Below are positions 5,047-56,876 of a DNA stretch of 64,000 nt, in pieces; positions within the stretch are counted from its first letter, which is position 1; each line of letters opens with the position of its first letter. A program made the translations under genes and the position numbers. Where the stretch lies: assembly GCF_055900595.2 (NCBI RefSeq), contig NZ_CM148325.1; one strand, given 5' to 3'. The notes beneath the pieces were generated by a model. It saw only the letters and a list, made by a program, of their open reading frames with translations, searched no databases and was not told the origin of the DNA.

Positions 5047-5072
5047 AGAATTATCTTCCGTTTGCAGGCTAT

Positions 5073-11587: not shown

Positions 11588-12517
11588 ATGAATTCAATAT
11601 TTACGGAAGAAAACTTACTGGCATTTACTATGGCTGCCCGCTATAGAAGTTTCAGCAAGGCGGCGAAGGAACTGGGCTTAACCACATCGGCAATTAGTTA
11701 CACTATCAAGCGTATGGAAATGGGGCTTGACGTGGTGCTTTTTACCCGAACTACCCGTAGCATTGAGCTGACCGAGCCCGGGCACTACTTTTTTTGCAAA
11801 GCAACTGACCTGCTCAACGATTACCACTCCATCATACGTAGAGTTGATGCCATCGCTCAGGGAATTAAATCCCGGGTGCGCATTTGTATTAATCAACTGT
11901 TGTATACCCCTCAGCATACAGCTCGGCTTCTGCAAGTGCTCAGGGAACACTTTCCAACCTGCCAGATAGCTATTACTACAGAGGTGTATAATGGCGTCTG
12001 GGATTCACTCATTAATAACCAGGCTGATATCGCCATTGGCGCGCCCGATACGTTACTGGACGGTGGTGGAATTGATTACATTGAAATCGGCATGATTCGT
12101 TGGTTGTTCGCGATTTCTCCGGCTCATCCGCTGGCGTTTATTCCTGAGCCCATTTCTGAGAGTCAGTTACGTCTGTACCCGAACATCATGGTGGAAGACA
12201 CTGCAAACACTATTAACAAAAAAGTCGGCTGGCTGTTACACGGGCAAGAGTCGATTCTGGTTCCCGACTTTAATACTAAGCTTCAGTGCCAGATCCTGGG
12301 GGAGGGAATCGGTTTTCTGCCAGACTATATGGTGCGTGAAGCGATGGAAAAGTCATTGCTGGTGACACGGCAGATCCACAACCCACGTCAGGATTCACGA
12401 ATGCTGTTGGCAACCAGGCATTCGGCAAGCGGTCAAGTCACTCAGTGGATAAAAAGAGAATTTAGCTTACAAGGAATACTGACGGGGATTTATCAGGATT
12501 TGATGCATCGAGCGTGA
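11588..12517 (+). CDS. yahB: LysR-family transcriptional regulator (yahB-type), divergent from the yah cluster
   Basis: N-terminal HTH FTMAARYRSFSKAAKELGLTTSAISYTIKRME; ORF in track starts 11459 but Met at 11588 gives typical 310 aa. Confidence 0.8.
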   Translation: MNSIFTEENLLAFTMAARYRSFSKAAKELGLTTSAISYTIKRMEMGLDVVLFTRTTRSIELTEPGHYFFCKATDLLNDYHSIIRRVDAIAQGIKSRVRICINQLLYTPQHTARLLQVLREHFPTCQIAITTEVYNGVWDSLINNQADIAIGAPDTLLDGGGIDYIEIGMIRWLFAISPAHPLAFIPEPISESQLRLYPNIMVEDTANTINKKVGWLLHGQESILVPDFNTKLQCQILGEGIGFLPDYMVREAMEKSLLVTRQIHNPRQDSRMLLATRHSASGQVTQWIKREFSLQGILTGIYQDLMHRA

Positions 12518-13126
12518 TGCACCGGATGGCAGTTTTACCTTTCGGTGCATCAATGAGATAAATGAAGGGCAATCAGTGAGATAAATGACGAATTGGAGTG
12601 GGTTACATGGGTTCTGGTGAACAGAAATGAAATTCTTTTTCTCTATGTGATAGACAAATCGGGAATTGAAATCATCCCTACAGGCAACTCAGAATCTGGG
12701 GGCTGAAAACGCTACGAACCATCAGATTTGGATAATATTCATCACCGTTTCGGCCTGATTGTATCCAATCTGGAAGAAAAGTTTCATGATTTTATGGGCG
12801 TTATCCTTATGGTGCTGGGCGACGAGAGTAATACTTCACGCCGGTTTTGTCGGATAATCCAGAAATATAGGGGCAAATCCAAACAGGAAAGATAGGGGGA
12901 GGGACGCGTTTCCGGCACAACCAGCGTTACGTCACCCTGCATTGTTAGTTACGAAAAGCGTACCGGAAACGCGGAACATTCTTTTAACACATTACAGGCA
13001 TTCGCACACATCTTTTTTCTTCTTTGTGCTCTGAACACTGCAGTGCTCAATTAATATTAGCCACGTTTTACAGTAAGAACGGTATCTGTTCTCTGATTCT
13101 TCCGGCGTCAACCCACAGTGTAATTA

Positions 13127-13556
<430 letters not shown>

Positions 13557-13680
13557 TCAGTCTGGTAACTATCGTAAACCGTTCAGTGGGGAGGATATCA
13601 AGAGCACTGTAGCTTTTTAATATCGTTTTTTGTTCCTCCAGGCGACGAACCTGCTTTTCCAGCTCATGAATACGTTGCTA

Positions 13681-35985: not shown

Positions 35986-37725
35986 TTGACTGGAAAATTA
36001 TGTTGCAGGAACGAGAGGGCTGAGGAACAAAGCTTATCCCGGCGCTGTCCGTCCTTGCTGTCACTGACACTGATGTCTGTTTTATTATCGCCTTTATCTC
36101 TTCAGGCAGCGGATGTCCGGCGTAGCGGAGATGAAGCATTTATCATTCAGCAGCAACGTCAGGAAGCCCTTGAGCAACAACTGACGCCTTCGGCCCCTGA
36201 TGTTCGCCTTTCTGCACCTGGCTCTTTTGCCCGTAAGATTAATTTTCCTGTTGAAACGCCCTGTTTTCAGATTAAACAGACAGAACTGGAGGGGGCTGAT
36301 GCGTTACCACACTGGTTGCCTTTACAAAAAATCGCCAACGGGGCGGTCGGGCATTGCATGGGGGCGAAAGGAATTAATCTGCTGATGAGTACATTGCAGA
36401 ACCGTCTGGTCGATCATGGTTATGTCACTACCCGGGTTCTGGCACCTTCGCAGGATTTAAAAAGCGGTATCCTCCGGCTGGTTATTATTCCCGGTGTTGT
36501 GCGGCATGTGCGTCTGACACCGGACAGTGATGACTATATTCAGTTGTATTCCTCATTTCCGGCACACGAAGGCTCTCTGCTGGATTTACGGGACATTGAG
36601 CAGGGGCTTGAGAATATGCAACGACTGCCGGGTGTACAGGCTGATATGGAAATTGTGCCCGGTGAGCAGCCAGGGGAAAGTGACATTCTTATTACCCGCA
36701 AACAGGACAAATACTGGCGACTGGGGTTTTCGCTTGATGATTCAGGTACCCGCAGCACAGGGCGTTATCTCGGTGGTATAACATTTTCTCTGGATAATCC
36801 TTTTTCCCTGAGTGACCTGCTGTATGTTTCTGCCACCCATAATTTTCCACATTACGGGGGTAAGGGTAGTAAAAACTACACGGCCCATTACTCTGTGCCT
36901 TTCGGCTACTGGCAGTTTTCCGTCACCGCCAGTGATTACGATTACCATCAGACGGTAGCTGGTGCGGTTGAGGATTACCAGTACAGTGGCGAGAGTCAGA
37001 ATCTGGGCATGCAGCTGAGCCGGGTACTGCATCGTAACGGGACGCAGAAAACGGTGCTGACCTACGATGTTCAGGCCCGCAGGTCGCGTAACTACATTAA
37101 TGATACGGAAATCCAGGTACAGCGCCGGCAGACGGCGGCATGGCGACTTGGACTGCAGCACCGCCATTATATTTCGCAGGCCACACTGGATGCCGGCGTC
37201 AGCTGGCAACGGGGAACCCGCTGGTCTGGTGCACAACCGGCACCGGAAGAAACGTTCGGTGAGGCAACGGCGCTCAGTAAGATCCTGCAGTTGAATGCAT
37301 CCTTTAATCTGCCCTTTACACTGGCAGGGCAGCCCTTCAGTTATTCCTTCCGGTATCAGCGTCAGCTGAGCAATACCCCGCTGACCCCACAGGAACAGTT
37401 TGCCATCGGTAACCGCTGGACGGTTCGTGGTTTTGACGGGGAACGAACGCTGAATGCCAGTAACGGATGGTATATCCGCAACGACCTGACCTGGCGTACG
37501 CCACTGCCGGAGCAGGAGTTATATCTGGGAATGGATTACGGCGAGGTGGGGGGAGCCGGCAGTGAATACCTTGTGGGACGTCATCTGGCCGGTGGTGTTG
37601 TGGGGCTGAGGGGGCAACTGTTCAGTACGGATTATGACGTTTTCATCGGTCGTCCGTTTTCAAAGCCGGCGGGTTTTATGACGAGTGATGTGACAGCCGG
37701 TTTTAATCTGTTCCGGGATTTCTGA
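35986..37725 (+). CDS. cdiB: Two-partner secretion outer-membrane transporter CdiB (TpsB/FhaC family)
   Basis: Signal peptide then POTRA/ShlB-type regions; alternative start at 36073 ([12 protein letters not shown]). Confidence 0.85.
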
Positions 37726-37734
37726 GAAAGTTTC

Positions 37735-38172
37735 ATGCGTAACGGGAAATATGACGTTCTGAGTCCCCTGTATTCCGGTGAGCCGGTCAATGAGGCGGAA
37801 GTCCTGGGGGCGGCCGTCTGGCTGTGGATGCACTCCCCCCTGCATCGTGATGCGCCACTGCATACCCTGCCGGACCTGCTGCTGCCGGTGATTAAGCACC
37901 GACAGTATGTGGTGGCAACAGAGCAGGGGCGACCGGTTTTCTTCATGAGCCAGGCCTGGCTCAGCCCGGAGGCAGAGGCGCGTTATCTTACGCAGCCGGC
38001 AATTCTCATGCCTCAGTCGGACTGGAACAGCGGCGACCGGATGTGGGTCTGTGACTGGGTTGCCCCTTTTGGACACACTCCGGATATGAGTCGTCTTGTC
38101 CGGCAGGATATTTTTCCCCGTCTGTGCTGGCGTTCGCTGTACCACCGTGGGCAGCAGACCGGGTTACCCTGA
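37735..38172 (+). CDS. cdiC: HlyC/RtxC-family toxin-activating lysine acyltransferase (CdiC-type), C-terminal end replaced
   Basis: AVWLWMHSPLHRDAP and SGDRMWVCDWVAPFG closely parallel HlyC SWLWASSPLHRNWP and SGDRKWFIDWIAPFG; ORF ends inside the cdiA reading region. Confidence 0.75.
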   Translation: MRNGKYDVLSPLYSGEPVNEAEVLGAAVWLWMHSPLHRDAPLHTLPDLLLPVIKHRQYVVATEQGRPVFFMSQAWLSPEAEARYLTQPAILMPQSDWNSGDRMWVCDWVAPFGHTPDMSRLVRQDIFPRLCWRSLYHRGQQTGLP

Positions 38173-41100
38173 CGGCTGACGGACGTATTGAAAACAGTGG
38201 CAGTATCAGTGCGAAAACGGATGTGCATCTGGCGACAACCCGGGAGCTGCATAACAGTGGTTCTGTTTATGCGGGGCAGGATACGCAGATACAGAGTAAT
38301 GGTGTATTCACCCATACAGGCTCTGTGGCATCACGTCGCAACACCCGGATTCAGACAGCGCGTCTGACCGGCGGTGAGCGAAGTCTGCTCACCGCCGGGG
38401 TGAAAGATGACGGACGTCTGGCGGCAGCGGGCAACCTGACTGTCAGTACCACCGGCGAACTGGCGGCACACGGACAGGTTCTGTCCGGTGGGGACATGCA
38501 ACTGAAGGGGCAGGGGCTGGATTTAAGCAACAGCCGGATACAGGGACAACATACTGAGCTGGATGCAACCAGTGGAAATCTGTCCACACAGAATGCGCAA
38601 CTGAGTGCCGGTACGCTTTCCGCCCGGACTGCCGGGCAGTTCAGCAATAATGACGGCACGATAAATGCCGACACACTGCAGATATCAGCACAGAGCCTGT
38701 CAAACCACAGGGGTAAACTGATTCAGACGGGAACAGGGGATTTTTCGCTGAGTCTGCCGGGAAGCGTGGATAACCGGGAAGGGCTGCTTGCGGCAAATGG
38801 CGCGGTGCGTCTGGATGCACTGAGCCTTGATAATCGCAAGGGGAAAGTGCAGGCGGCGCAGTCAGGCAGTCTGCAGGTGAAGACAACCGGTGCCGTGGAT
38901 AACCAGCAGGGACGTCTGCTTGCCAGCAGTGACATCCTGATTAATACACAGGCGCTGAATAACGACAACGGACTGATTTCAGCTGCTGCCGGAACGGGCA
39001 GGATAAAAACACAGCAGTCTGTCAGCAATACGGAGGGACGAATGGAGTCCGCCGGCAGGCTGGATATTTCGGCAGGGAGTCTGAATAACCACCAGGGTAC
39101 GGTGGTGTCTGACGGGCTGTCCGTGACGCTGGATGGTGCGCTGGATAATACGTCCGGCAGACTGCTTTCACAGAAAACGCTGTCTGTGTCAGGCAGCGAA
39201 CTGGTCTCTGATGATGGTCTGATTCAGTCCGGCAGTGACATGACGCTGGATGTACAGGACGGGGTACTTAGTAACCGGAACACGAAAACACGGGGTGGTA
39301 TCAGCAGCGCCGGTACCCTGACAGTGCGGGCTGGTATGCTGAATAACCAGCAGGGATTTATGGTGGGTCAGAAGGATATGACCCTGAACGCCGGAACGCT
39401 TGATAACCGTCAGGGCGTGCTGGGGAGTCAGGCGTCATTACAGATATCGTCAGGTACGCTGATGAATCAGAAAGGTGCACTGAAGGCCGGGACGGATATG
39501 TTGCTGAGTGGTGGCGATGTCAGTAATCAGGAAGGGACGCTTGCCGCCGGCGGGGACCTGAATACTCACCTGAATGTGCTGGAAAATCAGCAGGGGACGG
39601 TGGTCAGCAACGGTAACAGCAGGCTGGATGTCACACGGTTTGATAATCAGGGCGGCAGACTGGTGGCACAGCAGTCACTGACCCTTTCCTCGACGGATAT
39701 CATCAACGATGCCAGCGGCCTGATACAGAGCGGTGCATCGCTGAATCTCCGTGCTGACACGCTGAGCAACCGTAACAGTGGTGACCGGGGCGGGGTTATC
39801 AGTCAGGGGCCGATGACGCTGAATGCCGGCACACTGGACAGCACTGCCGGTGTGCTTTTGTCGGGAGATGCTCTGTCCCTGACTGCAGGCGTGGTTAACA
39901 ATACATCCGGTCAGGTGGTGGCAAACGGTCTGCTCGGCTGGAACAGCCAGGCGCTGAACAATCAGTCAGGTCTTATTCAGGGGAAAGGCATCAGCATTAA
40001 TACCGCAGGCCAGACGCTGGATAACCGTGAGGGTGGCCGGCTGGTCAGTGAAGGTGAACTCCGTCTGCATACGGGAGGCCTGCAGAACAGCCAGGGACAG
40101 ATACAGTCTGTGGGCGACATTCTGTTCGACAGTGTACGGGGCGTTGTGGACAACGTCTCTGGTCTGATCCGCAGTGGTTCTGCCATTACGCTGAACGCCC
40201 TGCAGTTTATCAATCGCCACACGCAGAATACCGGCCAGGGGCTGGAAGCGCAGACAATACACATCACGACGCAGGACCTTGATAACCAGGAGGGCAGTAT
40301 TCTGGCAGACAGGGCGCTTACGGTTATGGCAGACAGGACGCTCAGTAATAATGATGGCGTGCTCTCTTCCGGCGCGACATTGTCTGTCAGTGGCCGTCAG
40401 CTGACGTTTTCGAACCGTGACGGCGTGGTTAAGGCCGGGCAGTCAGTATCTGTGGATGCCGGTCAGCTCGGTGGTGACGGGAAACTGCTTTCGCTGGGCG
40501 ATATGGCGCTGAAAAGTAACACAACGTTCAGTAACAGTGGTCAGACCATTGCGAACGGAAACCTTACGCTTTCCGTTAATGGCGATGTCTCTAATACCGG
40601 CAGCCTGCTGGCAGGCAGCCGGCTTGACCTGAACAGCATCCGCCTTGAAAACACAGAGAAAGGTGAAATCAGTGCCGGGCAGACCTGGCTTAACGTGACG
40701 GACACACTGCTGAACTGTGGGCTGATTGACGGGAAATATACGCATCTTCAGGCGAACACCCTGACGAATTCCGGTACCGGGCGAATCTACGGCGATGCTG
40801 TTGGTGTCAGTGCTGCCACATTTAATAATCTGGAAGAAAATGGCGTGGCGGCGACGCTGGCCGGTGAGAAAGCGAAGCGGGACCCGGCAGCACTGAATCA
40901 GGCCCGCGCAGAGCTTGAGGCAGCAGGAAAGCCGTTTACGGAACAGGATGTGGCACAGCGGGCCTACAATAACGGTATGGCGGCCTCAGGTTTTGGAACG
41001 GGAGGCAAATACCAGCAGGCGATACAGGCCGCAACGGCAGCGGTACAGGGACTGGTCGGCGGTAATCTGAGTGCAGCCCTGGCAGGTGGTGCAGCGCCGT

Positions 41101-42149
41101 ATATTGCTGAAATTATCAAACAGACCACCCCGGATGGTGCGGGACGTGTGGCAGCTCATGCAGTAGTGAATGCAGCCCTGTCTCTGGCACAGGGTAAGAA
41201 TGCTCTTGCTGGTGCCGCAGGCGCTGCCACCGGCGAGGTGGTGGGAATGATAGCCACACAGATGTACGGTAAGCCGGTGAGTGAACTGAGCGAGACAGAG
41301 AAACAGACGGTCTCCACGCTGGCAACGGTTGCTGCCGGTCTGGCCGGTGGTCTGGTGGGAGACTCAGGTGCTTCAGCGGTAGCCGGAGCACAGTCAGGTA
41401 AGACGACGGTTGAAAACAATATGCTGAACGTGATAGCCACTGAAACAGCGGCTAATACGGCAGCAGCAATAGCTGGTGCTACAGGTAATGCCAGTAGGGA
41501 TACCGGGAATGATAATAGCTGGGATATTGGTGGTGGTTGTGAAGGCTCACGGGAACAGTGTGCTGTACGTGACCCGAGTCGCGATGGTACCCGGGGACCG
41601 GGGCATGTGCTGAATGGCGACAATACAGACGAAAACAAACAGCCGAATCTGGGCAAAGACGTAGCGAGCGCTACGGATAAGGATAAAGCTGAGCTTGGTG
41701 GTGCAGGTGCTGGAACACCGGGTGGGTGGGGACCGGATAATGAAGAAAAAGCCCGTCATCAGGAGGTTCAGCAACAACGATTTGATGAACTGAGTAAAAT
41801 ATATGATAAAAGTCACCCGGTCGGAGAGTTAACAGTGGATGGGCAGACTATCAGGCAGAGTTCGGTAAGTAACCGTTATGGTACGACGAAAGTGTTTGAA
41901 AGCCAGAATCTGACGGATAAACAGATCCACAATTACGCACAACAGCTGGCAGGAGATACACCGCTGAAAGAGGTTCGGCCGGGGATCTATACTGCAAAGC
42001 TGAATAACGGAACATCGATCACGTTGCGGAATTTATCGTCGTCCCAAGAACAAACAGGCGCCAGATGGACTATTGATATTAGAGGGAATCAGCAATTGGC
42101 TGAAATTGCACATAAATACGGACGTCAGGTTGAAATTAAATTTAGGTGA
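38124..42149 (+). CDS. cdiA: CdiA contact-dependent inhibition effector, 5'-truncated (no TPS secretion domain), with VENN-delimited C-terminal toxin
   Basis: 1341 aa starting in FHA-type repeats with no signal peptide or TPS domain; pretoxin region ends ...AGAQSGKTTVENN (VENN at 41409..41420); about 240-aa CdiA-CT. Confidence 0.85.
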   Translation: MLAFAVPPWAADRVTLTADGRIENSGSISAKTDVHLATTRELHNSGSVYAGQDTQIQSNGVFTHTGSVASRRNTRIQTARLTGGERSLLTAGVKDDGRLAAAGNLTVSTTGELAAHGQVLSGGDMQLKGQGLDLSNSRIQGQHTELDATSGNLSTQNAQLSAGTLSARTAGQFSNNDGTINADTLQISAQSLSNHRGKLIQTGTGDFSLSLPGSVDNREGLLAANGAVRLDALSLDNRKGKVQAAQSGSLQVKTTGAVDNQQGRLLASSDILINTQALNNDNGLISAAAGTGRIKTQQSVSNTEGRMESAGRLDISAGSLNNHQGTVVSDGLSVTLDGALDNTSGRLLSQKTLSVSGSELVSDDGLIQSGSDMTLDVQDGVLSNRNTKTRGGISSAGTLTVRAGMLNNQQGFMVGQKDMTLNAGTLDNRQGVLGSQASLQISSGTLMNQKGALKAGTDMLLSGGDVSNQEGTLAAGGDLNTHLNVLENQQGTVVSNGNSRLDVTRFDNQGGRLVAQQSLTLSSTDIINDASGLIQSGASLNLRADTLSNRNSGDRGGVISQGPMTLNAGTLDSTAGVLLSGDALSLTAGVVNNTSGQVVANGLLGWNSQALNNQSGLIQGKGISINTAGQTLDNREGGRLVSEGELRLHTGGLQNSQGQIQSVGDILFDSVRGVVDNVSGLIRSGSAITLNALQFINRHTQNTGQGLEAQTIHITTQDLDNQEGSILADRALTVMADRTLSNNDGVLSSGATLSVSGRQLTFSNRDGVVKAGQSVSVDAGQLGGDGKLLSLGDMALKSNTTFSNSGQTIANGNLTLSVNGDVSNTGSLLAGSRLDLNSIRLENTEKGEISAGQTWLNVTDTLLNCGLIDGKYTHLQANTLTNSGTGRIYGDAVGVSAATFNNLEENGVAATLAGEKAKRDPAALNQARAELEAAGKPFTEQDVAQRAYNNGMAASGFGTGGKYQQAIQAATAAVQGLVGGNLSAALAGGAAPYIAEIIKQTTPDGAGRVAAHAVVNAALSLAQGKNALAGAAGAATGEVVGMIATQMYGKPVSELSETEKQTVSTLATVAAGLAGGLVGDSGASAVAGAQSGKTTVENNMLNVIATETAANTAAAIAGATGNASRDTGNDNSWDIGGGCEGSREQCAVRDPSRDGTRGPGHVLNGDNTDENKQPNLGKDVASATDKDKAELGGAGAGTPGGWGPDNEEKARHQEVQQQRFDELSKIYDKSHPVGELTVDGQTIRQSSVSNRYGTTKVFESQNLTDKQIHNYAQQLAGDTPLKEVRPGIYTAKLNNGTSITLRNLSSSQEQTGARWTIDIRGNQQLAEIAHKYGRQVEIKFR

Positions 42150-42505
42150 GCATTATGTTGACTGAAAATGAGTATCGTGAAACAGCTGACGCATCGGAGA
42201 TGCAAGCGTTAAGTGGTTTATGGGCTTACAGTATTCCAGATCATGTTGATAGCGCAGTATTCAGTTTTGATGAAAGGAAAAAACTCTTTTTCTGGATATT
42301 TGAGCGCCTTCTGAAAGAAGGGCGCATCAAACTCGCCAAGCACGGTAAGTTTCTGGAAGGCAGTGTTGACGAGCAGGTTGAGCGTTTCCGACAGGCATTT
42401 CCAAAAACAGAAGAAGAGATGGAAGACGGTATCTGGTTTTTTGATGAGAGCTGTCCGGGAGGAGCTGTCTGGGTGCTTGAAGATGGCTCTCTCGAATGGA
42501 CCTGA
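42146..42505 (+). CDS. cdiI: Putative CdiI immunity protein
   Basis: 119-aa acidic cytoplasmic ORF overlapping the cdiA stop; assignment by position only. Confidence 0.6.
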   Translation: MSIMLTENEYRETADASEMQALSGLWAYSIPDHVDSAVFSFDERKKLFFWIFERLLKEGRIKLAKHGKFLEGSVDEQVERFRQAFPKTEEEMEDGIWFFDESCPGGAVWVLEDGSLEWT

Positions 42506-43050
42506 TAAACCCGTTCATAGTGCAGGATGCGGTGCAGCAAGCGTATAACAACGATATGACAGCCTCAGGTTTTGGAACGGGAGGCAAATACCAGCAGGCG
42601 ATACAGGCCGCAACGGCAGCGGTACAGGGACTGGCCGGCGGTAATCTGAGTGCACCCTGGCAGGTGGTGCAGCGTCGTATATTGCTGAAATAATCAAAAA
42701 TACCCCCCCCGGACTGTGCGGGAAGTGTGGTAGCTCATGCCTTGGTGAATGCCGCACTGGCTGTGGCACAGGGAAATAACGCTCTTGCCGGTGCCGCAGG
42801 GGCTGCCACCGGCGAGGTGGTGGGAATGATAGCCACACAGATGTACGGTAAACCGGTCAGTGAACTGAGCGAGGCAGAGAAGCAGACGGTCTCGACACTG
42901 GCAACGGTTGCTGCCGGTCTGGCCGGTGGTCTGGTGGGAGACTCAGGTGCTTCAGCGGTAGCCGGAGCACAGTCTGGTAAGGCGGGGGGCGAAGGTAGTT
43001 GGTTCGTGAATTGGTTGGAATTCTGTAATATTAATAATAAAAATCGCTAA
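42496..43050 (+). pseudogene. Orphan cdiA-CT fragment (duplicate pretoxin region, toxin domain lost)
   Basis: Near-identical to cdiA pretoxin region (AYNN.M.ASGFGTGGKYQQAIQAATAAVQGL...[15 protein letters not shown]) but split by indels and in-frame stop at 42691; ends ...[17 protein letters not shown] instead of TTVENN. Confidence 0.7.
42703..42710 (+). repeat. C8 homopolymer at a frame-restoring indel in the orphan cdiA-CT
   Basis: TACCCCCCCC where the cdiA paralogue has CAGACCACCCC. Confidence 0.8.
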
Positions 43051-43072
43051 ATGGTTATTCGGGGATACTCGA

Positions 43073-43474
43073 TTGAATAAATTTATATATTTTCTGTTAG
43101 CAGGTATTTTATTTTCGGGACAGGTGGATGCAGCACGGGGAAGAAAACCCTGCTCGGGTGCTAAAGGTGGCATTTCACACTGTACGTCAGACGGACGTTT
43201 TGTCTGTAACGACGGAAGTCTGAGTCAGTCGAAACGCTTTTGTTCCGGTTATGGCGTGGCACCCGGCAAACGTCAGGTGAAATCACCTGTCACCACGAAG
43301 CCGGTTCAGAAGAAAAAATCAGTGGCTGTCCGGAAGGTGCCACAACCGTCGGTGGCTGAGAAAGATGAGTCTGTACCGGTCACTGAGCCGCGTAAACCCA
43401 CCTGTGCGCCGCTTTATATGGCCAGCAAACCCGGATTCACGCATCTGCCTATTTGTTCCGGTAATCAGTATTAA
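43073..43474 (+). CDS. Small secreted cysteine-containing protein of unknown function
   Basis: 133 aa; signal peptide [21 protein letters not shown]; 6 Cys in mature part; lysine-rich linker. Confidence 0.55.
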
Positions 43475-43708
43475 TCTGACACTGAAATAGCAGAGGCATC
43501 TGTGCTCAGCCTGCAGTTAACCCTGTATTGGCGAGCATCATAAAGCCGGACATCCTTCCGGGTATAAATATTTCCGGAGGGCGTTAATCAGAAATATTCA
43601 GTTACGGAGAAGGAAAATAAAGGAAAGTCATGGCAGGAAGAAAAAAAAGATGATAATGCAGCGGGATTTGTCCTGATTTTAGTTTGCGTTATTCTCTGGG
43701 GGATTTAT

Positions 43709-44875
43709 GTGGCGGTCAGGACGCTGATAAACCTTAATGAGCGCTTTATTGATGCAGTATCGAATCCGGCAGGTATTATTGGTTTGTTTTTTGGTTTGCT
43801 TACCGTATTTGCAATTTTATTTCGTTTTTTTATTTACCGGAGACTCAGAAAGAAAACAGCAGCATTTGAGCAGGCCGTTTCAGAGCTGGTTCAGAGAGAA
43901 CGGGATTTTAATGAAACTGTCAATGCCGCTATAGCCCGGGGAATACGACAGGAAAAGGAGCAGCTTGCCAGACGTCGTGAGGAATTTCATACCACCAGAA
44001 AGAAGGCCGGCCGTGCAATGCAGCGGATTGTTGATTCTGCCTGGAAATTTAAGGCGAAGACTCTGCTGGCTGGTGTAACGATTAATAACTGGCAAAGCAA
44101 ATATGACCAGCTTCGTAAGGAAAGAGAGGCTTACGCTGCTGTCAGTGAGAAAATTGCCTTTCTTAACCTGGAAGATAATTCTGACTGGGAGAGTGTCAGG
44201 CAACAGTTTCTGGACAAAGTGGCATTGCTGGAAAAAGCGCAGGAAGAAAAGGAATATCAGGCAGAGCTTAAGCGTCAGATGCGTGAAGAAAAAGAGCGTC
44301 AGGATGAACTTGACCGGCGCCAGCGGGAAGCGGAAGAGGAAGAACGGCGTCTTGCTGAGCAGCAGAAACTGATTGAGGAGGCGCTGCGCGCAGCAGAAGG
44401 GGCTCACAGGGAGGAGTTAGAGAAACAACGCCTGGAGCTGGAACAGAAAATTCAGGAAGCGCATGCGCAGTATGAACGTGCTAAATCCATGGCTCAGCTT
44501 ACGAAACAGGGGCATGTTTATATCATTTCGAATATTGGTTCGTTTGGTGAGGATGTCTTTAAAATTGGCATGACCCGACGGCTGGAACCCATGGACAGGG
44601 TCAAAGAGTTAAGTGGTGCTTCTGTTCCGTTTGATTTTGATGTTCACGCCATGATTTCCTGTGATGATGCGCCCGCGCTGGAAAAAACACTTCATGACAG
44701 TCTGGAAAAATACCGCATCAACAGGATTAACCTGCGTAAAGAATTTTTCCGCGTGAAGCTTGAGAAAATCATTAATGAAGTGGAGCGTCACCACGGGCAG
44801 GTGGAATATGTGGCTGACCCGGCAGCACTGCAGTATCTGCAGAGTCTGGAGTGCGCGGAAAATGAAGCTGCCTGA
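43709..44875 (+). CDS. Membrane-anchored coiled-coil protein with C-terminal T5orf172/GIY-YIG-like domain (DUF4041-type architecture suspected)
   Basis: N-terminal TM helix GIIGLFFGLLTVFAILFRFFIY; long charged coiled coil; C-terminal GHVYIISNIGSFGEDVFKIGMTRRLEPMDRVKELS...FDFDVHAMI typical of T5orf172. Confidence 0.65.
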   Translation: MAVRTLINLNERFIDAVSNPAGIIGLFFGLLTVFAILFRFFIYRRLRKKTAAFEQAVSELVQRERDFNETVNAAIARGIRQEKEQLARRREEFHTTRKKAGRAMQRIVDSAWKFKAKTLLAGVTINNWQSKYDQLRKEREAYAAVSEKIAFLNLEDNSDWESVRQQFLDKVALLEKAQEEKEYQAELKRQMREEKERQDELDRRQREAEEEERRLAEQQKLIEEALRAAEGAHREELEKQRLELEQKIQEAHAQYERAKSMAQLTKQGHVYIISNIGSFGEDVFKIGMTRRLEPMDRVKELSGASVPFDFDVHAMISCDDAPALEKTLHDSLEKYRINRINLRKEFFRVKLEKIINEVERHHGQVEYVADPAALQYLQSLECAENEAA

Positions 44876-45068
44876 CAATCAGTGTTCTGATTTTATTCCG
44901 GCCGGATATAACAGAAGGGATATCTGCACATATCCTGCAGCATGGTTCACGGTATTCCGGTCATGTTAATGATTCTGTTTTTTTATTTCTGAATAAAATG
45001 ACACCCACGATATAACGTCGTGGGTGTCGGTGATGATTATTTTTTTGTTCACAGATTAAGGTGCGTTT

Positions 45069-46856
<1,788 letters not shown>

Positions 46857-46921
46857 TACCAGACCATTTCTTTATTCCGGGCTTTCACCATACTGTTATT
46901 ATCAGGTTTATTTAATTCGCC

Positions 46922-47227
46922 ATGAACCCGTTATTTAACGATATTCAGATGCGTCTTTTTTATCTGAACCACTCTCCGTACTCCTGGCACTGGAATGTCA
47001 GATTCAGACCTCAGGAAGCCGTATATATTGGCAGCGATACCTGTCATATCACCATTACCTGTAATCAGTCTGGTTTTCATTTAACCCGGGACGGACAACG
47101 GGTATTCACTGAGCGTTATATCAGAAACCTTAATGAGCTGTTACCGGTTCTGAAACGGCGGTGGGATGTGACACCGGCAATCATCCGCGCAGTGGAATAC
47201 CTTTCCCGGGTACCGGTATCACACTGA
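46922..47227 (+). CDS. Small hypothetical protein upstream of ImpA_N-domain gene
   Basis: 101-aa ORF, 43 bp upstream of next gene on same strand. Confidence 0.4.
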   Translation: MNPLFNDIQMRLFYLNHSPYSWHWNVRFRPQEAVYIGSDTCHITITCNQSGFHLTRDGQRVFTERYIRNLNELLPVLKRRWDVTPAIIRAVEYLSRVPVSH

Positions 47228-47269
47228 TGTTCTTTCCGTAACTGTTAATCATGATTTAATACAGCAACA

Positions 47270-48643
47270 TTGAATCTGCCGATGACTTCTGAAGTGAAAC
47301 TGAAAACCGGTGGTGACCCCCGGTCATTACCGGATTATGCTGCCCTGCGTGATGAAATCAGCAAACTGACCCACCCGGCACGCCCGGATGTGGACTGGCG
47401 TCATGTGGAGACGCTCTGCCTGCGTCTGTATGAACACAATGGCGTGGAATTACAGACAGCATCCTGGTACACCATCGCCCGGATGCATACAACAGGGTTA
47501 AGTGGCCTGAATGAAGGGCTGGCTCTGATTGTGGCGCTGACCCGGCATCACTGGTCAGTGATGTGGCCGCTGAATACACACGCCCGGCTGGAAATTATTA
47601 CCGGTCTGTTCAACCGTCTGCAAAAAACGCTCCGGGCCATGCCACCGGACGACCGTGACAACCTGCCCCTGCTGTATCAGACCGAAACATTTCTGAAGGC
47701 ACTGAGTGACACACTGGCCCGGCACGAACTTAAACAGAGCAGTAAAGTGGCTTTACCGGAAGCCATGGTGAAGGGATATATCACCCGTCTGGAAAATCAG
47801 CCAGTGCAGGACGAAGCGTCGTCTCCGGTAACCCTTCCTGCTCAGGCACTCCGGTCTGATGCTCCGGATGTACAGGGACATCAGCCCCTGCCGCACTCCC
47901 GTCTGGTGTATGTTGTTTCTGAAACAAAAACAGAGCCCACATCCTCCCTTCAAAACTCCCCGCCCACGTTTCTGAAACCGTTTGTGACTGGTGTCTGTGC
48001 GGCATTGCTGGCGGTCTGCGTGGCCATTCCGGGATGGCAGTATCTGGCACAGCCATCACCGGCAGAGCAGCAACTCAGGGCGCTGCTGACACCACCACCG
48101 GATGTGCTTTCAGCAGACCAGATGACACAGCTCAGCAGAACACCCTCACTGTTAAATCATGCGTCAGAGTGGATAACCCTTTCCGGTCAACAGATAACGC
48201 GACTGACAGAATTACCCCTGGCATACAACCTGCAGTGCAGTGCGCAGCTACTGCAGCAACTGATGGTACTTTTCCCCGACAATCCCCGGGTACAGGAAAT
48301 GGTGGATAACTGGCAGAAGAGCGTAAGGAGTCGTGCGCTCCCGGAAGAGGCGATGACGGGCTGGAATGAAGGCATGACCCGCTTACAGCAGCTGGCTGAA
48401 CGCCTGAACCGTCTGGATGAACAGCGGGGAAAATACATGACGGTCAGTGAACTGAAAACGGAGGTGTTTGGCATCATGCAGGCTTTTAACCGGCACATAC
48501 CGGCAGAAGAGCGGTTACGTCGCTATGATGAAGCCCGTAACCAGAATGGCAGTGAACAGCAACAAAAACAGATGGAAAATGCCCTGATGGAACTGTTGAA
48601 CCGCTACTATTTTTTAACACGGAATAGTTGTGTGGATATATGA
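47270..48643 (+). CDS. ImpA N-terminal domain protein with central TM helix (TssA/VasL-like)
   Basis: N-terminus GGDPRSLPDYAALRDEISKL...DVDWRHVETLCLRLY...LNEGLALIVALTRHHW resembles ImpA_N domain; TM segment FVTGVCAALLAVCVAI. Confidence 0.55.
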   Translation: MNLPMTSEVKLKTGGDPRSLPDYAALRDEISKLTHPARPDVDWRHVETLCLRLYEHNGVELQTASWYTIARMHTTGLSGLNEGLALIVALTRHHWSVMWPLNTHARLEIITGLFNRLQKTLRAMPPDDRDNLPLLYQTETFLKALSDTLARHELKQSSKVALPEAMVKGYITRLENQPVQDEASSPVTLPAQALRSDAPDVQGHQPLPHSRLVYVVSETKTEPTSSLQNSPPTFLKPFVTGVCAALLAVCVAIPGWQYLAQPSPAEQQLRALLTPPPDVLSADQMTQLSRTPSLLNHASEWITLSGQQITRLTELPLAYNLQCSAQLLQQLMVLFPDNPRVQEMVDNWQKSVRSRALPEEAMTGWNEGMTRLQQLAERLNRLDEQRGKYMTVSELKTEVFGIMQAFNRHIPAEERLRRYDEARNQNGSEQQQKQMENALMELLNRYYFLTRNSCVDI

Positions 48644-48784
48644 GAAGATATTTAACCTTTTGCAAGGTAATTTCCCTAAGGTGCGATAGGGTACAGAATA
48701 TTCTTTATTCTAGGATGGTTTTATTTTGTATGTTGGCAATTTCAATGAATATTTTACATTTAAGTATGGAATAAGGAGTGTTGA

Positions 48785-50491
48785 ATGAAGCTTTCATCAT
48801 TTTTTGTGGAAAACTTTAAATGTATCGGTAGAGAGGTACACATTAAAATAGATGATATTATTATTTTAATTGGGCAGAATAATGTAGGAAAATCAACAAT
48901 CCTTGATGCTTATGAGAAATTTGCTGCTCTTGGAAAAGAAAAGGTCTTAGATATTAGCCATTTTCATAATGAAGATGTTTCAAAGCCAGTGATCATGACA
49001 GGAGTATTTACAGATATTACTGTAGAAGATGAAACGGCAATAGGAAAAAAATGGAAGCACAATGATCCAGTTTATGGTGAGTGTATTAAGTTCAGATGGG
49101 TATGGAATGCACCCGGTGAGTCGGCTAAAAAAGAGGCATTTGATCCAACTAAAGGACAAGGTGAATTTGTAGCTGGTGGCTTGGGCGGGTTTGATAGCAT
49201 AATTAAAAGCCGTATTCCTAAGCCACTTCGAATTAAACCTGATGATTCAGTCCTGAAAACACAGGAGCTTATAATCGAAATATTGAAAAGTAATGTGAAG
49301 GAATACCTCAGTAATGGGCCTGATTCCAAGGCTGATGTGATAGCCAAAATTGAATCCCTAACAAGCGCTCTGGTTGAGTCATCTAAAGCAGAATTTGATC
49401 GATTGCTTGGTCGTATAACAGACAATATAGAATCGATTTTTCCAGGGGTTATTATGGAATTGGTTCCTCAGTCGAAAGATCCTATTGATGAGAAGATTAT
49501 CGCTTCAGCATCCTATTTAAAGGTTCGAAACCCGACTAGTCGTTCAACTATGCTTGAACTCCAAGGAACCGGGCTTAAGCGTTCTTTACTGTGGTCTGCA
49601 TTGTCAGTACTTTCGCAAGAAGGAAAAAGCAAAAAAGGTGATGTTGTCAAGGAGTGTAATATCCTGCTTATAGATGAGCCAGAGGCTTTTTTGCATCCAC
49701 CAACAATCCGTGGCGCACGAGAGGCTTTGTATACATTTGCAGCCAATAATCCTGGTTGGCAGGTAATGGCTACCACGCACTCTCCAGTATTCATCGATTT
49801 GTCGAAAGATCATACGACAATTATTCGGGTTGATAAAGATAGCCAGAACAAATACATCTCAACAAACGATATTGGGTTTGATAAGGATGAGAAAGTCAAT
49901 CTTAAAATTGTTCGAGCATGTAATCCAATGGTAAATGAGTTTTTTTTCTATAATAAAATTGTTCTTGTGGAGGGCCCTACTGAAAAAATTGTACTGAATC
50001 ATCTTCAGGATACTCTGGGGATAGAGATGCATGTAATCGATTGTCTTGGTAAAGGTAATATACCTATGTTTGTTAAAATTCTTAATCAGTTCGATGTTCC
50101 TTATGTTGTTATTCATGATTCTGACTCACCTAAAATCCGTCGTAAAGGAAAATATGTGAACAACGGGATGTGGACTATAAATACTTTGATTAGAAATGAA
50201 GTTGCTAAATCAAAAAAAGGACGTATTTTTACTCAGGTGCCGCACTTTGAAGGCGAATTTTTTGGCGAAACTCTTACCTCTGGTAAGGTATCAAATGTGC
50301 TCGAGGTTCTCCAGAACGTTACGGCTGAAGAATACACTCGCTTAATAAGCGTTTATAGCCGTATTTTAAATGACGCAGAAGAATCATTATTTACTGGGAC
50401 ACTTGAGTCTTTTATGGCTAAAATTAATGCATATACGGCAGATAAAACTGCATTAACAGATCCAGAGTTATGGGGATTATCGGGTTTATAA
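48785..50491 (+). CDS. OLD-family ATPase-Toprim nuclease (class 1 OLD-like, stand-alone)
   Basis: 568 aa; Walker A GQNNVGKST; ABC-type ATPase core (LLIDEPEAFLHP); C-terminal Toprim (VLVEGPTEKIVL ... VVIHDSDSP); gene is AT-rich. Confidence 0.8.
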   Translation: MKLSSFFVENFKCIGREVHIKIDDIIILIGQNNVGKSTILDAYEKFAALGKEKVLDISHFHNEDVSKPVIMTGVFTDITVEDETAIGKKWKHNDPVYGECIKFRWVWNAPGESAKKEAFDPTKGQGEFVAGGLGGFDSIIKSRIPKPLRIKPDDSVLKTQELIIEILKSNVKEYLSNGPDSKADVIAKIESLTSALVESSKAEFDRLLGRITDNIESIFPGVIMELVPQSKDPIDEKIIASASYLKVRNPTSRSTMLELQGTGLKRSLLWSALSVLSQEGKSKKGDVVKECNILLIDEPEAFLHPPTIRGAREALYTFAANNPGWQVMATTHSPVFIDLSKDHTTIIRVDKDSQNKYISTNDIGFDKDEKVNLKIVRACNPMVNEFFFYNKIVLVEGPTEKIVLNHLQDTLGIEMHVIDCLGKGNIPMFVKILNQFDVPYVVIHDSDSPKIRRKGKYVNNGMWTINTLIRNEVAKSKKGRIFTQVPHFEGEFFGETLTSGKVSNVLEVLQNVTAEEYTRLISVYSRILNDAEESLFTGTLESFMAKINAYTADKTALTDPELWGLSGL

Positions 50492-51507
50492 AATTCTCCA
50501 TAAGGGATTTTAAATCAATGAGTTTATTTTTATGCAGATAGAGTCTTTGAGTGAATTGAAATATTAGTACTGTCGACCTGCTGTTTTTGTAATATGATGG
50601 ATTTGGTAGGGGGATGTAATTTTTGTGATAGTGGTTAATATTAAAATGTTTTAGTGTGGATTTTTAGAGTAAAATGATTTAAGTAGTGTTCATATAAAGC
50701 AAGTTTGTTTTTTTTGGGGGGGTGATATTGATAGTAATGTGTGATATATTTTATTGAAATTATTTGTTGTGTGTTGTGAGAATAACAGAGTGTGATTGAT
50801 AAGTATGACGTAAAGAATGAATTATTGGTTCGCTGTATCAGAACAGGTAGGTTATGTTTTATTGACGTTATTTCTAACGAAACTAATTAACTCTGAGTTG
50901 CTTTTGCGTTATCGTATATTTGATCGTTTTTCGTTATAAGAGAAAAGTTTTAGATATATAATTCTTTGAGTGATGTTGAAGTTGGTTTTATCTGTCAGGA
51001 AGTATTGACTATATATGAACATACTCAACGATGCTGCAACGAAAAGAAAATTACAACTGTCCAGTTAGGCAGGAAACTTAATGGCAGGTATGCAGATATG
51101 ATTGCTGAGTTAAAAGAAACAGTAGAGATGAGGGGGGAGGGGTAATTTCTTTTGAGATGGATATATTGAATTCTTTTAATGATGCGGATGAATATCACGG
51201 ACGTGTTAAACTGGAATTGGATATACCTGCTTCAGATATATTATATTGCCATGATTTTATTGATTCAAAACATGTAAACTCCTGGCTGGTTGAACCACAT
51301 GAGTGGGTGGTTATTAATCGTTCTCTTACTGGGATTGTTACAGTGCCAGTATCAGCAATAAAAATCTCTTATTGAAAAAATTATGTATGTAACTTACTTT
51401 ATATATATAAGGGTAAAAACAGTCCCGGTAATAATTAAATATTATTTAATGTTTATTGCTATGTATTGGAGATATAAGCGGGTTTCTTTTGCATAAAGTA
51501 AAAATAA

Positions 51508-52438
51508 ATGAATGATAATTTTTTAACGGAGAAAGTCCTTACTGGAGAGAATGTTCTGCGTGCAGCAATTGCTCGTATTGAGTGGGTTTTTGAAACATTT
51601 CCATCAGTTTGTCTCTCTTTTTCCGGTGGTAAAGATTCCACCGTGCTTTTCCATCTTTTGGCTGATGTGGCCCGCAGGAAAAAACGTCGTTTCTCTGTAC
51701 TGTTCATTGACTGGGAGGCTCAGTACCAGTGCACCATTGAACATATTCAGAAGATGCGGGAAATGTACCATGATGTGACGGATACCTTTTACTGGGTGGC
51801 ACTTCCCCTGACCACGGTAAACGGTGTCTCGCAGTTTCAACCGGAATGGATATGCTGGGAGTCGGGCGTGAAGTGGGTTCGCCAGCCACCGGAGGGGGCC
51901 ATTACAGATATGGCGTATTTTCCCTTTTACCGGTATGCCATGACGTTTGAAGAATTTGTTCCGGCATTTTCTTCCTGGTTTGCAGACAATAAATGTGGTG
52001 TGGCAGTACTGACCGGTGTCCGTGCGGATGAGTCCCTTAACCGGTTCATGGGACTGGTATCCCAGCGCAAACTGAGATACGCCGATGATAAGCCCTGGAC
52101 CACGGCATCGCCTGAAGGGTTTTACTACACCATGTATCCGCTGTATGACTGGAAAACTCGTGATATCTGGATATATCACACCAGAACCCGTGCCATCTAC
52201 AATCCCCTGTATGATCTGATGTACCGTGCCGGCGTACCGTTACGCAACATGCGTGTCTGTGAACCTTTTGGTCCTGAACAACGTAAGGGACTGTGGCTTT
52301 ACCATGTTCTGGAGCCGGATACCTGGGCCAGGATGTGTGAGCGGGTGTCAGGGGCTGCCAGCGGGGCACTTTATGCCAATGAAAGCGGTGCTTATTTTGC
52401 CCTGCGTAAGCGCATATCAAAACCAGCCCATCATACCT
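51508..52438 (+). pseudogene. PAPS reductase-like (phosphoadenosine phosphosulfate reductase family, IbrA-like) gene, 3' end truncated by IS911
   Basis: PP-loop motif SFSGGKDSTVLFHLL; ORF runs from native sequence into IS911 left end at 52439. Confidence 0.7.
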
Positions 52439-52510
52439 TGAAGTGGTTTACTGAATTTGGCCACCTGAACAGAGGTGATATGCTCACCTCAGAACAACAC
52501 AGGTGCCATA

Positions 52511-53658
<1,148 letters not shown>

Positions 53659-53802
53659 CTCGGTGGCCAGTTTTTGTTGACCACTTCATATCTGTAAGAC
53701 TCTCATAAAGAATGATTTCTGGTGCCGGACCCTCTCCTTCAGTCCTAACAAACCCCGGCACTATGAACGTTATCTGCAGCGTATGAAAGAAAGGAGGAAG
53801 GA

Positions 53803-54441
53803 ATGGGGGATTCTGTGACAGCGGAGGTACTGAGTGACATGATTCGTCAGTACTTCAGCCAGGAACGACCAGAAGAAGAGACCATACAGGCTCTGAATCA
53901 TCTGCGCAGGGTGCTTCATGAGGTCAGTCCATTTGCACAGGAGCCTGTGGACTGTGTGCTGTGGGTGAAAGCAGATGAGGTGGTGGCCAATGATTATAAT
54001 CCTAATGTCATGGCGCCGGGTGAGAAAAAACTGCTGAAACATTCGCTGGAGCAGGACGGGTTCACGCAGCCTGTGGTTGTCTCGGAAGAGAAGGAGCATT
54101 ATCTGGTGGTGGATGGTTTTCATCGTCAGTTACTGGGCAGGGAAGCAGGTACGGGAAAACGTCTGAAGGGCTGGTTGCCAGTGACCTGTATTAATCCGGA
54201 GAGAAAGGGACAGGCCGCACGCATTGCCGCGACCATTCGACATAACCGGGCCAGGGGAAAACACCAGATAACTTCAATGTCTGATATTGTCAGGGATCTT
54301 TCACGTCTGGGCTGGACGGATGAACGCATTGGCATGGAGCTGGGTATGGACCAGGATGAAGTTCTCAGGTTGAAACAGATTAGCGGGCTGACGGAGCTGT
54401 TTCAGGAAGAGGATTTCAGCCCGGCATGGACGGTTCGCTGA
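53803..54441 (+). CDS. ParB-like nuclease domain protein (IbrB-like)
   Basis: 212 aa; ParB N-terminal-like segment (VVANDYNPNVMAPGEKKLLKHSLEQDGFTQPVVV...YLVVDGFHR). Confidence 0.65.
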   Translation: MGDSVTAEVLSDMIRQYFSQERPEEETIQALNHLRRVLHEVSPFAQEPVDCVLWVKADEVVANDYNPNVMAPGEKKLLKHSLEQDGFTQPVVVSEEKEHYLVVDGFHRQLLGREAGTGKRLKGWLPVTCINPERKGQAARIAATIRHNRARGKHQITSMSDIVRDLSRLGWTDERIGMELGMDQDEVLRLKQISGLTELFQEEDFSPAWTVR

Positions 54442-54480
54442 GACTGTCAGATATGTGTATTATTTCAGTGAGTTGATGTT

Positions 54481-54789
54481 TTGAGCAGGAAAAATAGTAC
54501 CCCGGAAGTCGTGGAAGACATGGTTGCACAGACGCTGGAGGCGGCGGGTTGCTGGCGCAGAGCTTCTGCCCGCTGGCTTTTTGTTATGGGAAATGTTGAA
54601 TGTACAGAAGCACAACGGGAGTGGTTGTTGTTACGCAGGAATTATTGCCTGGCGCAGATATCGTCCCCGCCGCTACCTGAAAAGCTGGATATCAGCGAGG
54701 TGGCGAAAGCTGCAGATGCCACGCTGAGGCGAATGGGGATTGCCAGTCCGTCTGGGGAGGTATTCAGAAAAGGTACACTGGTCTGTTGA
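54481..54789 (+). CDS. Hypothetical protein
   Basis: ORF only. Confidence 0.35.
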   Translation: MSRKNSTPEVVEDMVAQTLEAAGCWRRASARWLFVMGNVECTEAQREWLLLRRNYCLAQISSPPLPEKLDISEVAKAADATLRRMGIASPSGEVFRKGTLVC

Positions 54790-54809
54790 TATTCAGGTAA
54801 CAGGTATTA

Positions 54810-55454
54810 ATGATGAAGAAAGTAATGGTGGACAGCGTATCAGTGCCATGGCAGCTTTTGTGCGATGAACATGGTTTTACCCGGGAGCACCACAATCAGT
54901 TGAAGAAGTTCAGCCCGGAGGCATTACGTGAAATTATTGCTGAAATAGCCTGCTGCCATCCATCAACCAGTGTATTGCTCAGGAATAAGTGGCTGACACC
55001 GCCGGAGGATATTCCGGAGCAGGTTACCCGTGAATACGAACGAAGAATACAGAACTGTCCATCGTTCAGGAGCGAGAAGGAAGCGGAATCCTGGTTAAAT
55101 GAACTGTTTTTTGCTGTGATTGCTCCGCTATACCGTGTTGCCCCCGAACAAACAGAACAGGTTGAGTCCTTTGTTCTGCAGCTTATTGCCGAGCAGGAGC
55201 GGGTTTGGGAGCTTATTTTAACCAATGATGGTTATTCATGGCATTGCGCACTTTATGATATATTATTTCATCTGGTTTTACGAAATATGGAAGACCAGCC
55301 TGAACATCAGAGACAGCGAATAACAAAAATACTTAATGAGTCCGATACAAAACGGGTTGCAGAAGAGATTAAATTTCGGATTCAATATCTTCAGGATGAA
55401 GAACAAAAAAGAGTTTTAAGTGAACTGGTAAATGTCCTGACTTCAAAAAGATAA
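54810..55454 (+). CDS. Hypothetical protein
   Basis: 214-aa ORF with plausible RBS spacing; no family recognised. Confidence 0.45.
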   Translation: MMKKVMVDSVSVPWQLLCDEHGFTREHHNQLKKFSPEALREIIAEIACCHPSTSVLLRNKWLTPPEDIPEQVTREYERRIQNCPSFRSEKEAESWLNELFFAVIAPLYRVAPEQTEQVESFVLQLIAEQERVWELILTNDGYSWHCALYDILFHLVLRNMEDQPEHQRQRITKILNESDTKRVAEEIKFRIQYLQDEEQKRVLSELVNVLTSKR

Positions 55455-55495
55455 AACATGCCGGAGTAATTTTTTCTATATGTTAATAAAATCGG

Positions 55496-55563
55496 TGCGT
55501 ATTACCATGAAGGAGATCGATGAGTAACCGTTATTGGATGATCTCCTTCCATAAAAATACGCG
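55496..55563. repeat. MITE-like element: two ~33-bp inverted repeats matching the termini of the IS3-family element in asrB, separated by 2 bp
   Basis: TGCGTATTACCATGAAGGAGATCGATGAGTAAC-CG-TTATTGGATGATCTCCTTCCATAAAAATACGCG; compare termini at 30737 and 32480. Confidence 0.7.
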
Positions 55564-56876
55564 TAATCTAATGGTTCGCTCTGTACCAAAAGAAGACATT
55601 GTTCACAATATCGAGTTAATCATTCGATCGTTGAATATTTTCATTGAAAAATTTCTCAGTATAGAATATATCAATGTTGAGGGTATTCCTCTTACATCTC
55701 GAAGGATAACTATCATGGGTCTTAAACCTGGTCCAAAACCAATTGCTAAGTCGACAGGAAAACCGGATCAACGCCGACGCGATAATAAAGATACTCCTGG
55801 CAATACTCCGGGACTAAAGCCAAGTAAGTCCACAGGTAAGTAAAAAAATAAGGGTATAAATAAGCATTTATACCCTGACTATATATCCAGTCCACCGAAG
55901 GTGTTTCAGCAGCCAGATGCTCGTTCTTTCTATATCATACGCCTTTGCCCCGTACCCTTTCGCAAGCAAAGACTCTGGTAAATACTCGTCATATTTATCC
56001 AGATCCTTATCAGGAACAACTGTAGCAGGCTCAAATTCTGAAGGTGCAAAATGGCATCTGAATCGATCACGACTTGGCATGCTTCCGATCATTGATTGGC
56101 ATCCTGCCAATCGTATCGTTCCGGCAAACTCATATTGACGCATTTTTCAGGCGAGCCACTGGGAGCGCATACGAATGGGCGCCGTCTGACGATGGTTGAT
56201 TTATTTTGTTGTACAGGGGCGATCGCCAGGCAGGTGCCGGAGGCTGGCTCTGAAGTGCTGAGTCGGGTAATCGCGTCAGGCTGCGCAGTACTGACATGGG
56301 TACTGGTGGCAGGTGATGAAGTTCGACTCCGGAAATGCCGCCGGGTTGATTGCGTATTCCGCTCTATTCGATCACGGATTGGCCCCCTGTGTACGAACAT
56401 CTGACGGCAGGTGTTGCTCATACAGGGTAAATCCCTCAAGAGGCAACAACTTTGTCAGTCGCTACTCCGGCCACTCAGGCAGACGCGTCAGGATGTTCGT
56501 CAGCCCGGCATGTGACTCTAGGCCATTACGTTTTGCTGTATCCAGAAGACTCATTATCTGTGCTGCATGTTTTCCGTCCCATGATAACCCGATGGATGGC
56601 GTGTTCGTAGATATTGTTGCAGTATGGAACCATATTCTAAGATACTTTGCTGTAAGAAATGCTACGTTTGATGAGCTCTATTTTATTATTCTGCCAGCTA
56701 AAAATTAGTATTGAATATAAAACTCACCACATTGAGAATAAATGAAACAAATATATTTAATCAGGAAGTTAAAAACAGATAACATGGGTGTAATACAATA
56801 AGGTACAGCCAGTAATTCCGGGCTTGCGGAGTTGCTGGATCGTATGACTTAGACGTGATAAAAAACAGGGAATACG

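Follow-up and report, generated by a model that had tools for sequence, protein, structure and literature searches.

The stretch of DNA analysed here, a 64-kb piece of contig NZ_CM148325.1 from the RefSeq assembly GCF_055900595.2 (hereafter, the window), carries a contact-dependent growth inhibition (CDI) locus in which a gene for a toxin-activating acyltransferase, cdiC, is situated between the transporter gene cdiB and the effector gene cdiA. Four co-oriented open reading frames (ORFs) follow each other in the order cdiB-cdiC-cdiA-cdiI (35986-37725, 37735-38172, 38124-42149, and 42146-42505), with lengths of 579, 145, 1341 (from a GTG start), and 119 amino acids (aa), respectively; limits and order are exactly those proposed in an earlier note made from the sequence alone. 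The assignment of the locus to the acyltransferase class of CDI systems, proposed in the same note, is also sound, given the acyltransferase homology of CdiC and the POTRA/TpsB domains found in CdiB. On the other hand, the locus had been taken as a complete system, a view that has to be abandoned: cdiC is truncated at its 3′ end, and cdiA is devoid of the signal peptide, the two-partner secretion (TPS) domain, the receptor-binding domain, and the target lysine. We therefore consider it very probable that the window contains a class IV cdiBCAI locus that decayed in place and is unable to deliver toxin.

The comparison material came from two samples. In the reference search, 5,426 complete RefSeq genomes of E. 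coli were searched by megablast with an 8.2-kb locus query, and the best matches were spread across ~13.3 kb. The best of them, found in E. coli GmM062 (L001), serves as the intact reference locus. Its flanks are those of the window copy (asrA/asrB, an ECs1377-family gene, and a DUF4222 gene upstream; YdcA, a GIY-YIG nuclease, and a helicase downstream), and ORF listing and translation gave uninterrupted frames for CdiB (579 aa), CdiC (175 aa), CdiA (3005 aa), and CdiI (119 aa). In the L001 CdiA, Arg1465 immediately precedes a peptide, Lys1466-Arg1535, in which there are seven Lys residues and only one Arg, the terminal one; the protein also has a KKGK motif at 1466-1469, Val1328, and Pro1589; since these landmarks are the ones published for CdiA-STEC4 (Halvorsen et al., 2021; PMC8510554), L001 is a bona fide class IV reference. 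The second sample was a larger assembly collection, with contigs named E. coli by their sources, from which eight loci (L004-L011) were fetched. As for the annotation of the reference, RefSeq/PGAP splits cdiB and cdiA of L001 (L001 positions 3587-14896), and also those of L002 and L003, into a number of pseudogene pieces labelled “incomplete” and one shorter protein, with every piece in one frame. As the L001 pieces are continuous in a single frame, this fragmentation is an artefact of annotation, and one that gives intact class IV loci a degenerate appearance. The idea that every E. coli copy is degenerate was rejected on these grounds. A paper on the reannotation of cdiAB in CFT073 deals with another locus.

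The losses suffered by the window copy were mapped by blastn of the window against L001, and by blastp of the CdiA remnant against intact CdiA. The nucleotide alignment consists of four collinear blocks (97.4-99.1% identity) with three gaps between them (Table 1). The first gap (deletion 1) starts within cdiC, whose last 32 codons are lost, and extends across the spacer between the two genes into cdiA as far as codon 320, taking with it the coding sequence of the extended signal peptide and the TPS domain. The second one is confined to the repeats, and the third (deletion 3) includes the receptor-binding domain (Val1328-Pro1589) with the acylated Lys1467, as well as the stretch up to the distal repeats. 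The region that the earlier note had proposed to compare with characterised classes of CdiA is therefore absent from the window copy, which leaves nothing to compare. At the protein level, two parts of intact CdiA are matched by the remnant, residues 321-1263 (minus 40 aa) and 2576-3005. No copy of the deleted segments was found anywhere in the 64-kb window by blastn or tblastn. The 1341-aa ORF contains neither a signal peptide nor a TPS domain, and the TIGR01901 model, which matches residues 106-203 of intact CdiA, found no match in it; filamentous-haemagglutinin repeats are present, as is the PT-VENN domain (Pfam, E 4.8e-20), with the VENN motif at remnant residue 1096. The GTG codon at 38124, from which this ORF is read, falls within the cdiC coding sequence, in a different frame, and no Shine-Dalgarno sequence can be seen before it. 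As the fragment has no native start and its GTG belongs to the interior of another gene, the “1341-aa CdiA” is an ORF-calling artefact.

The homology of the protein encoded between cdiB and cdiA with HlyC/RtxC-like acyltransferases, also advanced in the earlier note, is borne out by a Pfam HlyC match (PF02794, E 2.1e-30, model positions 1-119 of 127) and by a match to ApxC (PDB 4WHN, E 1.1e-25, over residues 14-135); a search of NCBIfam gave nothing for CdiC or CdiI. The 145-aa frame consists of 143 native residues and two foreign ones, and, with an intact homologue of 175 aa, residues 144-175 (32 aa) are gone. Both catalytic residues published for CdiC, His37 and Asp107 (PMC8510554), can be read in the translation of the window copy. 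CdiB, for its part, displays POTRA_2 (E 2.7e-22), POTRA_3 (E 2.8e-17), and ShlB (E 3.4e-108) Pfam domains, the POTRA and TpsB domains that the earlier note had called for, and its gene has the same length as in the intact reference loci, with no indels. Two candidate starts are available, a TTG at 35986 (579 aa) and an ATG at 36073 (550 aa), of which the former would give the more conventional signal peptide. The intact cdiB ORF appears to have been left without a partner in its own locus. Upstream of cdiB, an AT-rich region had been noticed previously, and the spacer is indeed poor in GC (36.5%, vs. 49% for the window; the locus itself reaches 54.6%). A scan of 35300-43700 for sigma-70 promoter and terminator consensus sites gave counts not above those of shuffled sequence, and an Rfam scan of the whole window produced no match.

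Table 1. Features of the cdi locus and of the genes downstream of it; positions are those of the window.
Feature	Position	Strand	Detail
AT-rich spacer 5′ of cdiB, presumed promoter region	35394..35985	.	592 bp
cdiB, TpsB-type outer-membrane transporter	35986..37725	+	ORF intact; Pfam domains; no indels vs. intact loci
cdiC remnant, toxin-activating lysine acyltransferase	37735..38172	+	HlyC/ApxC matches; C-terminus lost
Deletion 1 (junction)	38162..38165	+	1071 bp; GGTT microhomology; fuses cdiC 3′ region to cdiA codon ~321
cdiA remnant, FHA-1 repeat region	38166..40864	+	Intact residues 321-1263 minus 40 aa; TIGR01731 repeats
Deletion 2 (junction)	40015..40025	+	120 bp, in frame; 11-bp direct repeat CGCTGGATAAC; 40 aa of repeats lost
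Deletion 3 (junction)	40860..40864	+	3951 bp, in frame; 5-bp microhomology; CdiA residues 1264-2575 lost
cdiA remnant, distal repeat end and pre-toxin domain	40865..41420	+	PT-VENN; VENN motif at 41409-41420
cdiA-CT	41421..42149	+	N-terminal segment common to other CdiA-CT types, then ~126-aa toxin domain (41769-42146)
cdiI, DUF596/Imm-NMB0513 immunity gene	42155..42505	+	116 aa; AGGTGA 5 nt 5′ of ATG
Orphan pre-toxin fragment	42507..43050	+	Direct repeat of 40928-41414, 87-91% identity; frameshifted
PD-Lambda-1 (GIY-YIG/T5orf172)	43709-44875
NERD+UvrD helicase	45069-46856
Isolated TssA/ImpA_N-VasL gene	47270-48643
Old-family nuclease	48785-50491
PAPS-reductase-like protein	51508-52542
Type I restriction-modification hsdR	56877-59921		Further large ORFs up to 62774

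According to the published work on class IV systems (PMC8510554), an intact locus operates as follows: CdiB exports CdiA across the outer membrane through recognition of the N-terminal TPS domain of the latter; CdiC places 3-hydroxydecanoate on Lys1467, in the receptor-binding domain, leading to stronger binding to the lipopolysaccharide (LPS) core of a target cell; and the toxin situated after VENN is then transferred, with CdiI shielding siblings. In the window, the 1071-bp microhomology deletion took the secretion domain, the 3951-bp one the receptor-binding domain, and the 120-bp one 40 aa of repeats. Whatever product is still translated from the remnant would be barred from the Sec and CdiB pathways, and CdiC would be left without its substrate site. 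The domains are missing from the window copy, which makes the steps that depend on them and on the acylation site structurally impossible; the loss of CDI function is what their absence would entail, and no growth inhibition by this locus is predicted.

The C-terminal toxin and its immunity gene have been spared by the three deletions. Homologues of the ~126-aa toxin domain are found on CdiA, PAAR (type VI secretion system), pyocin-S-like, and Xylella DUF769 haemagglutinin scaffolds, and always end in E-[IL]-K-F-R; fused as it is to PAAR, pyocin-S-like, and Xylella haemagglutinin scaffolds, this domain is a mobile polymorphic-toxin module. No Pfam toxin family matched CdiA-CT, and PADLOC reported nothing for CdiA-CT or CdiI. 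A confident AlphaFold2 model of the toxin, with a pLDDT (predicted local distance difference test) of 85.8, is mixed alpha/beta, and found no significant fold match in the PDB. A PDB sequence search with CdiA-CT matched only a short stretch that precedes the toxin domain (query residues 90-132) and has counterparts in the tRNase CdiA-CTs 5J43, 5J5V, and 8ZYC at E ~0.01. In an alignment of the toxin domain (A1), two Arg residues are invariant (R87 and R99), as are a Ser, a Thr, and a Lys.

Regarding CdiI, its matches are to Pfam DUF596 (E 2.9e-17) and, weakly, to PDB 2O5H (E 1.1e-5). The Imm-NMB0513 (DUF596) family has been tied to Ntox20 and Ntox7 toxins delivered by type V secretion systems, Ntox20 being a mostly-beta toxin domain with a conserved Arg that is paired with Imm-NMB0513 (Zhang et al., 2012; PMC3482391). 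The invariant residues, taken together with this immunity-family association, hint at a toxin domain of the Ntox20 type. The 116-aa cdiI frame begins 5 nt past the cdiA stop codon; with a ribosome-binding site of its own, it could still be translated, and may still protect against neighbours delivering the same toxin, the cdiA-CT/cdiI pair being in effect an orphan module. Immediately downstream, a second copy of the pre-toxin region (42507-42993) ends just short of VENN, and is accompanied by neither a toxin nor an immunity gene; in L001, the corresponding fragment is annotated as a frameshifted VENN pre-toxin pseudogene.

The window copy is not an isolated case. The exact 145-aa truncated CdiC was retrieved from 161 contigs (251 blocks) of the larger assembly collection, some of the contigs being multi-Mb in size, and deletion 1 is common to the eight loci fetched. 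Across the locus, the window is 99.95-99.97% identical to three of them (L004, L005, and L010). On the contrary, queries spanning the junctions of deletions 1 and 3 (37965-38365 and 40660-41060, respectively) had no counterpart in the 5,426 complete genomes, where their halves always map apart. Deletion 3 is present in at least L006, L008, and L011, besides the window, whereas deletion 2 was seen in the window, L004, L005, and L010, but not in L006 or L011; with deletion 1 in all eight loci and deletion 3 in three or more others, deletions 1 and 3 therefore appear to be the older ones. The cdiA remnants among the loci with deletion 1 encode 1341, 1036, 1028, 512, or 441 aa; the cdiB of L010 has acquired a nonsense codon; and the CT/cdiI pair is gone in five of the eight other deletion-1 loci (L006-L009 and L011), owing to recombination between the two pre-toxin repeats (40928-41414 and 42507-42993). 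Such a series is the mark of a locus that, once inactivated by a single event, has gone on decaying. The cdiB copies in the lineage are 99.7-100% identical, and a selection analysis of the gene was uninformative because of the low number of substitutions.

Several observations nevertheless weigh against a locus simply in decay. The 4 kb of the cdiA remnant can still be read as one open frame, the cdiB ORF is undamaged, and His37 and Asp107 are preserved in CdiC, so that residual expression or a secondary role of the remnant is possible. This CdiB might also, in principle, be used by an intact cdiA located beyond the window, in another part of the genome. In addition, the deletion-1 lineage was found only in the larger assembly collection, and not in the complete RefSeq set.

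Among the alternatives, a complete and functional class IV system working with a short CdiA of 1341 aa would fit the gene order, the domain families, and the uninterrupted cdiA frame, but we regard it as highly improbable: such a CdiA would possess no signal peptide or TPS domain, would have lost Lys1467 with the receptor-binding domain, and would have to be started at a GTG within cdiC with no Shine-Dalgarno sequence in sight, next to a CdiC deprived of its last 32 aa. Moreover, the breakpoints are unambiguous when set against the intact locus at the same chromosomal site. It is harder still to believe that the deletions merely reflect a collapse of haemagglutinin repeats during assembly. cdiA does abound in repeats, and deletion 2 is bounded by 11-bp direct ones; deletions 1 and 3, however, join non-repetitive sequence at microhomologies of 4-5 bp, and the same structure recurs in independent assemblies, including contigs of 3.1 and 4.0 Mb, as does the exact truncated CdiC in the contigs counted above.

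A different proposal, compatible with decay, is that the remnant is kept by selection, with cdiI conferring immunity against neighbours that deliver this toxin and cdiA-CT/cdiI serving as an orphan cassette able to enter an intact cdiA by recombination. The integrity of the cdiI ORF and its good ribosome-binding site speak for it, and so does the finding of the same CT/cdiI pair as the main module in L001 and as an orphan behind a different CT in L003, the 459-bp pre-toxin repeat offering homology for recombination. Against it, the loss of the pair in most of the other deletion-1 loci indicates that its retention is not general, and divergence within the lineage is too low to gauge selection; on balance, we hold this proposal to be unlikely, with a real minority chance of being right. 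A residual function of the locus is plausible only as immunity or as an orphan toxin/immunity cassette, and even this is made less likely by how often sister loci have lost the pair. There is a slight chance that the locus has been put to a new use, with the cytoplasmic toxin/immunity pair acting, in a widespread E. coli lineage, as an addiction or abortive infection-like module beside the downstream defence genes (PD-Lambda-1, NERD-UvrD, Old, and type I restriction-modification), or with the orphaned CdiB serving another TpsA protein. Decay in place of a class IV locus remains the reading that we favour.

Class IV CDI is a known system, described in 2021; the window holds a pseudogenised copy of it, of which an intact version exists at the same site elsewhere in E. 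coli. The closest described relative is CdiBCAI-STEC4 of E. coli STEC_O31 (Halvorsen et al., 2021; PMC8510554), with which it shares a cdiC located between cdiB and cdiA, the His37/Asp107 pair of CdiC, and a VENN-delimited toxin followed by an immunity gene, the L001 counterpart showing in addition Lys1466/1467/1469, Arg1535, Val1328, and Pro1589. In contrast to that system, the window CdiA is deprived of residues 1-320 and 1264-2575 and of 40 aa of repeats, and CdiC of residues 144-175; judging from the sequence, the window copy would be unable to export CdiA, to bind LPS, or to have its effector lipidated. Unlike HlyC and ApxC, the window CdiC accompanies a two-partner-secretion effector instead of an RTX cytolysin, and it is truncated, with its substrate site gone. 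Orphan cdiA-CT/cdiI modules, reportedly described by Poole and co-workers in 2011, are said to lie downstream of cdi loci as promoterless and start-less units made up of VENN, a toxin, and its cognate immunity gene. The window pair resembles them in this make-up and in its pre-toxin homology with neighbouring copies, and L003 carries the module as an orphan; the window pair differs in being the leftover of the main cdiA after internal deletions, with ~900 codons of FHA-1 repeats kept. Finally, CdiI is akin to the Imm-NMB0513/DUF596 immunity proteins of Neisseria and gammaproteobacterial polymorphic toxins (PMC3482391), the weak 2O5H match included, whereas the window toxin lacks a Pfam toxin match, its connection with Ntox20 coming through the immunity association only.

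The locus should be annotated as cdiB and cdiI with pseudogenes of cdiC and cdiA between them, and not as an active CDI system, and strain-level predictions of interbacterial antagonism should leave it out. It also provides a clean case of class IV CDI decay, in which a single microhomology deletion of the secretion domain was followed by lineage-specific deletions in the repeats, and whose path includes the loss of toxin and immunity genes through recombination between the two pre-toxin repeats. Besides, the toxin domain is a widespread polymorphic-toxin module that is open to characterization from the intact locus.

With respect to the genomic surroundings, small prophage-like genes had been reported at the flanks and read as a sign of horizontal acquisition. 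The small genes flanking the locus do match PHROG families; nonetheless, these families are functionally unknown, a tRNA scan of the window found none, and the surroundings look like those of a mosaic island, so the support for prophage flanks is weak. It is reasonable to place the locus in horizontally acquired island DNA, a part of the earlier claim that can be kept. Approximately 7 kb upstream lies a SPATE-type S6-peptidase autotransporter of 1291 aa (25137-29012), which marks a mosaic virulence/fitness island, and the region 11000-29067 is 99.6% identical to that of many avian and human E. coli. Between this region and the cdi locus, the asrCBA anaerobic sulfite reductase operon occupies the minus strand (29162-33809), and an IS3-family element interrupts asrB (its transposase ORFs lie at 30813-31718 and 31838-32383); asrB is intact in L007-L009 and L011. 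Directly downstream of the CDI remnant, candidate anti-phage defence genes extend from 43709 to 62774 (Table 1).

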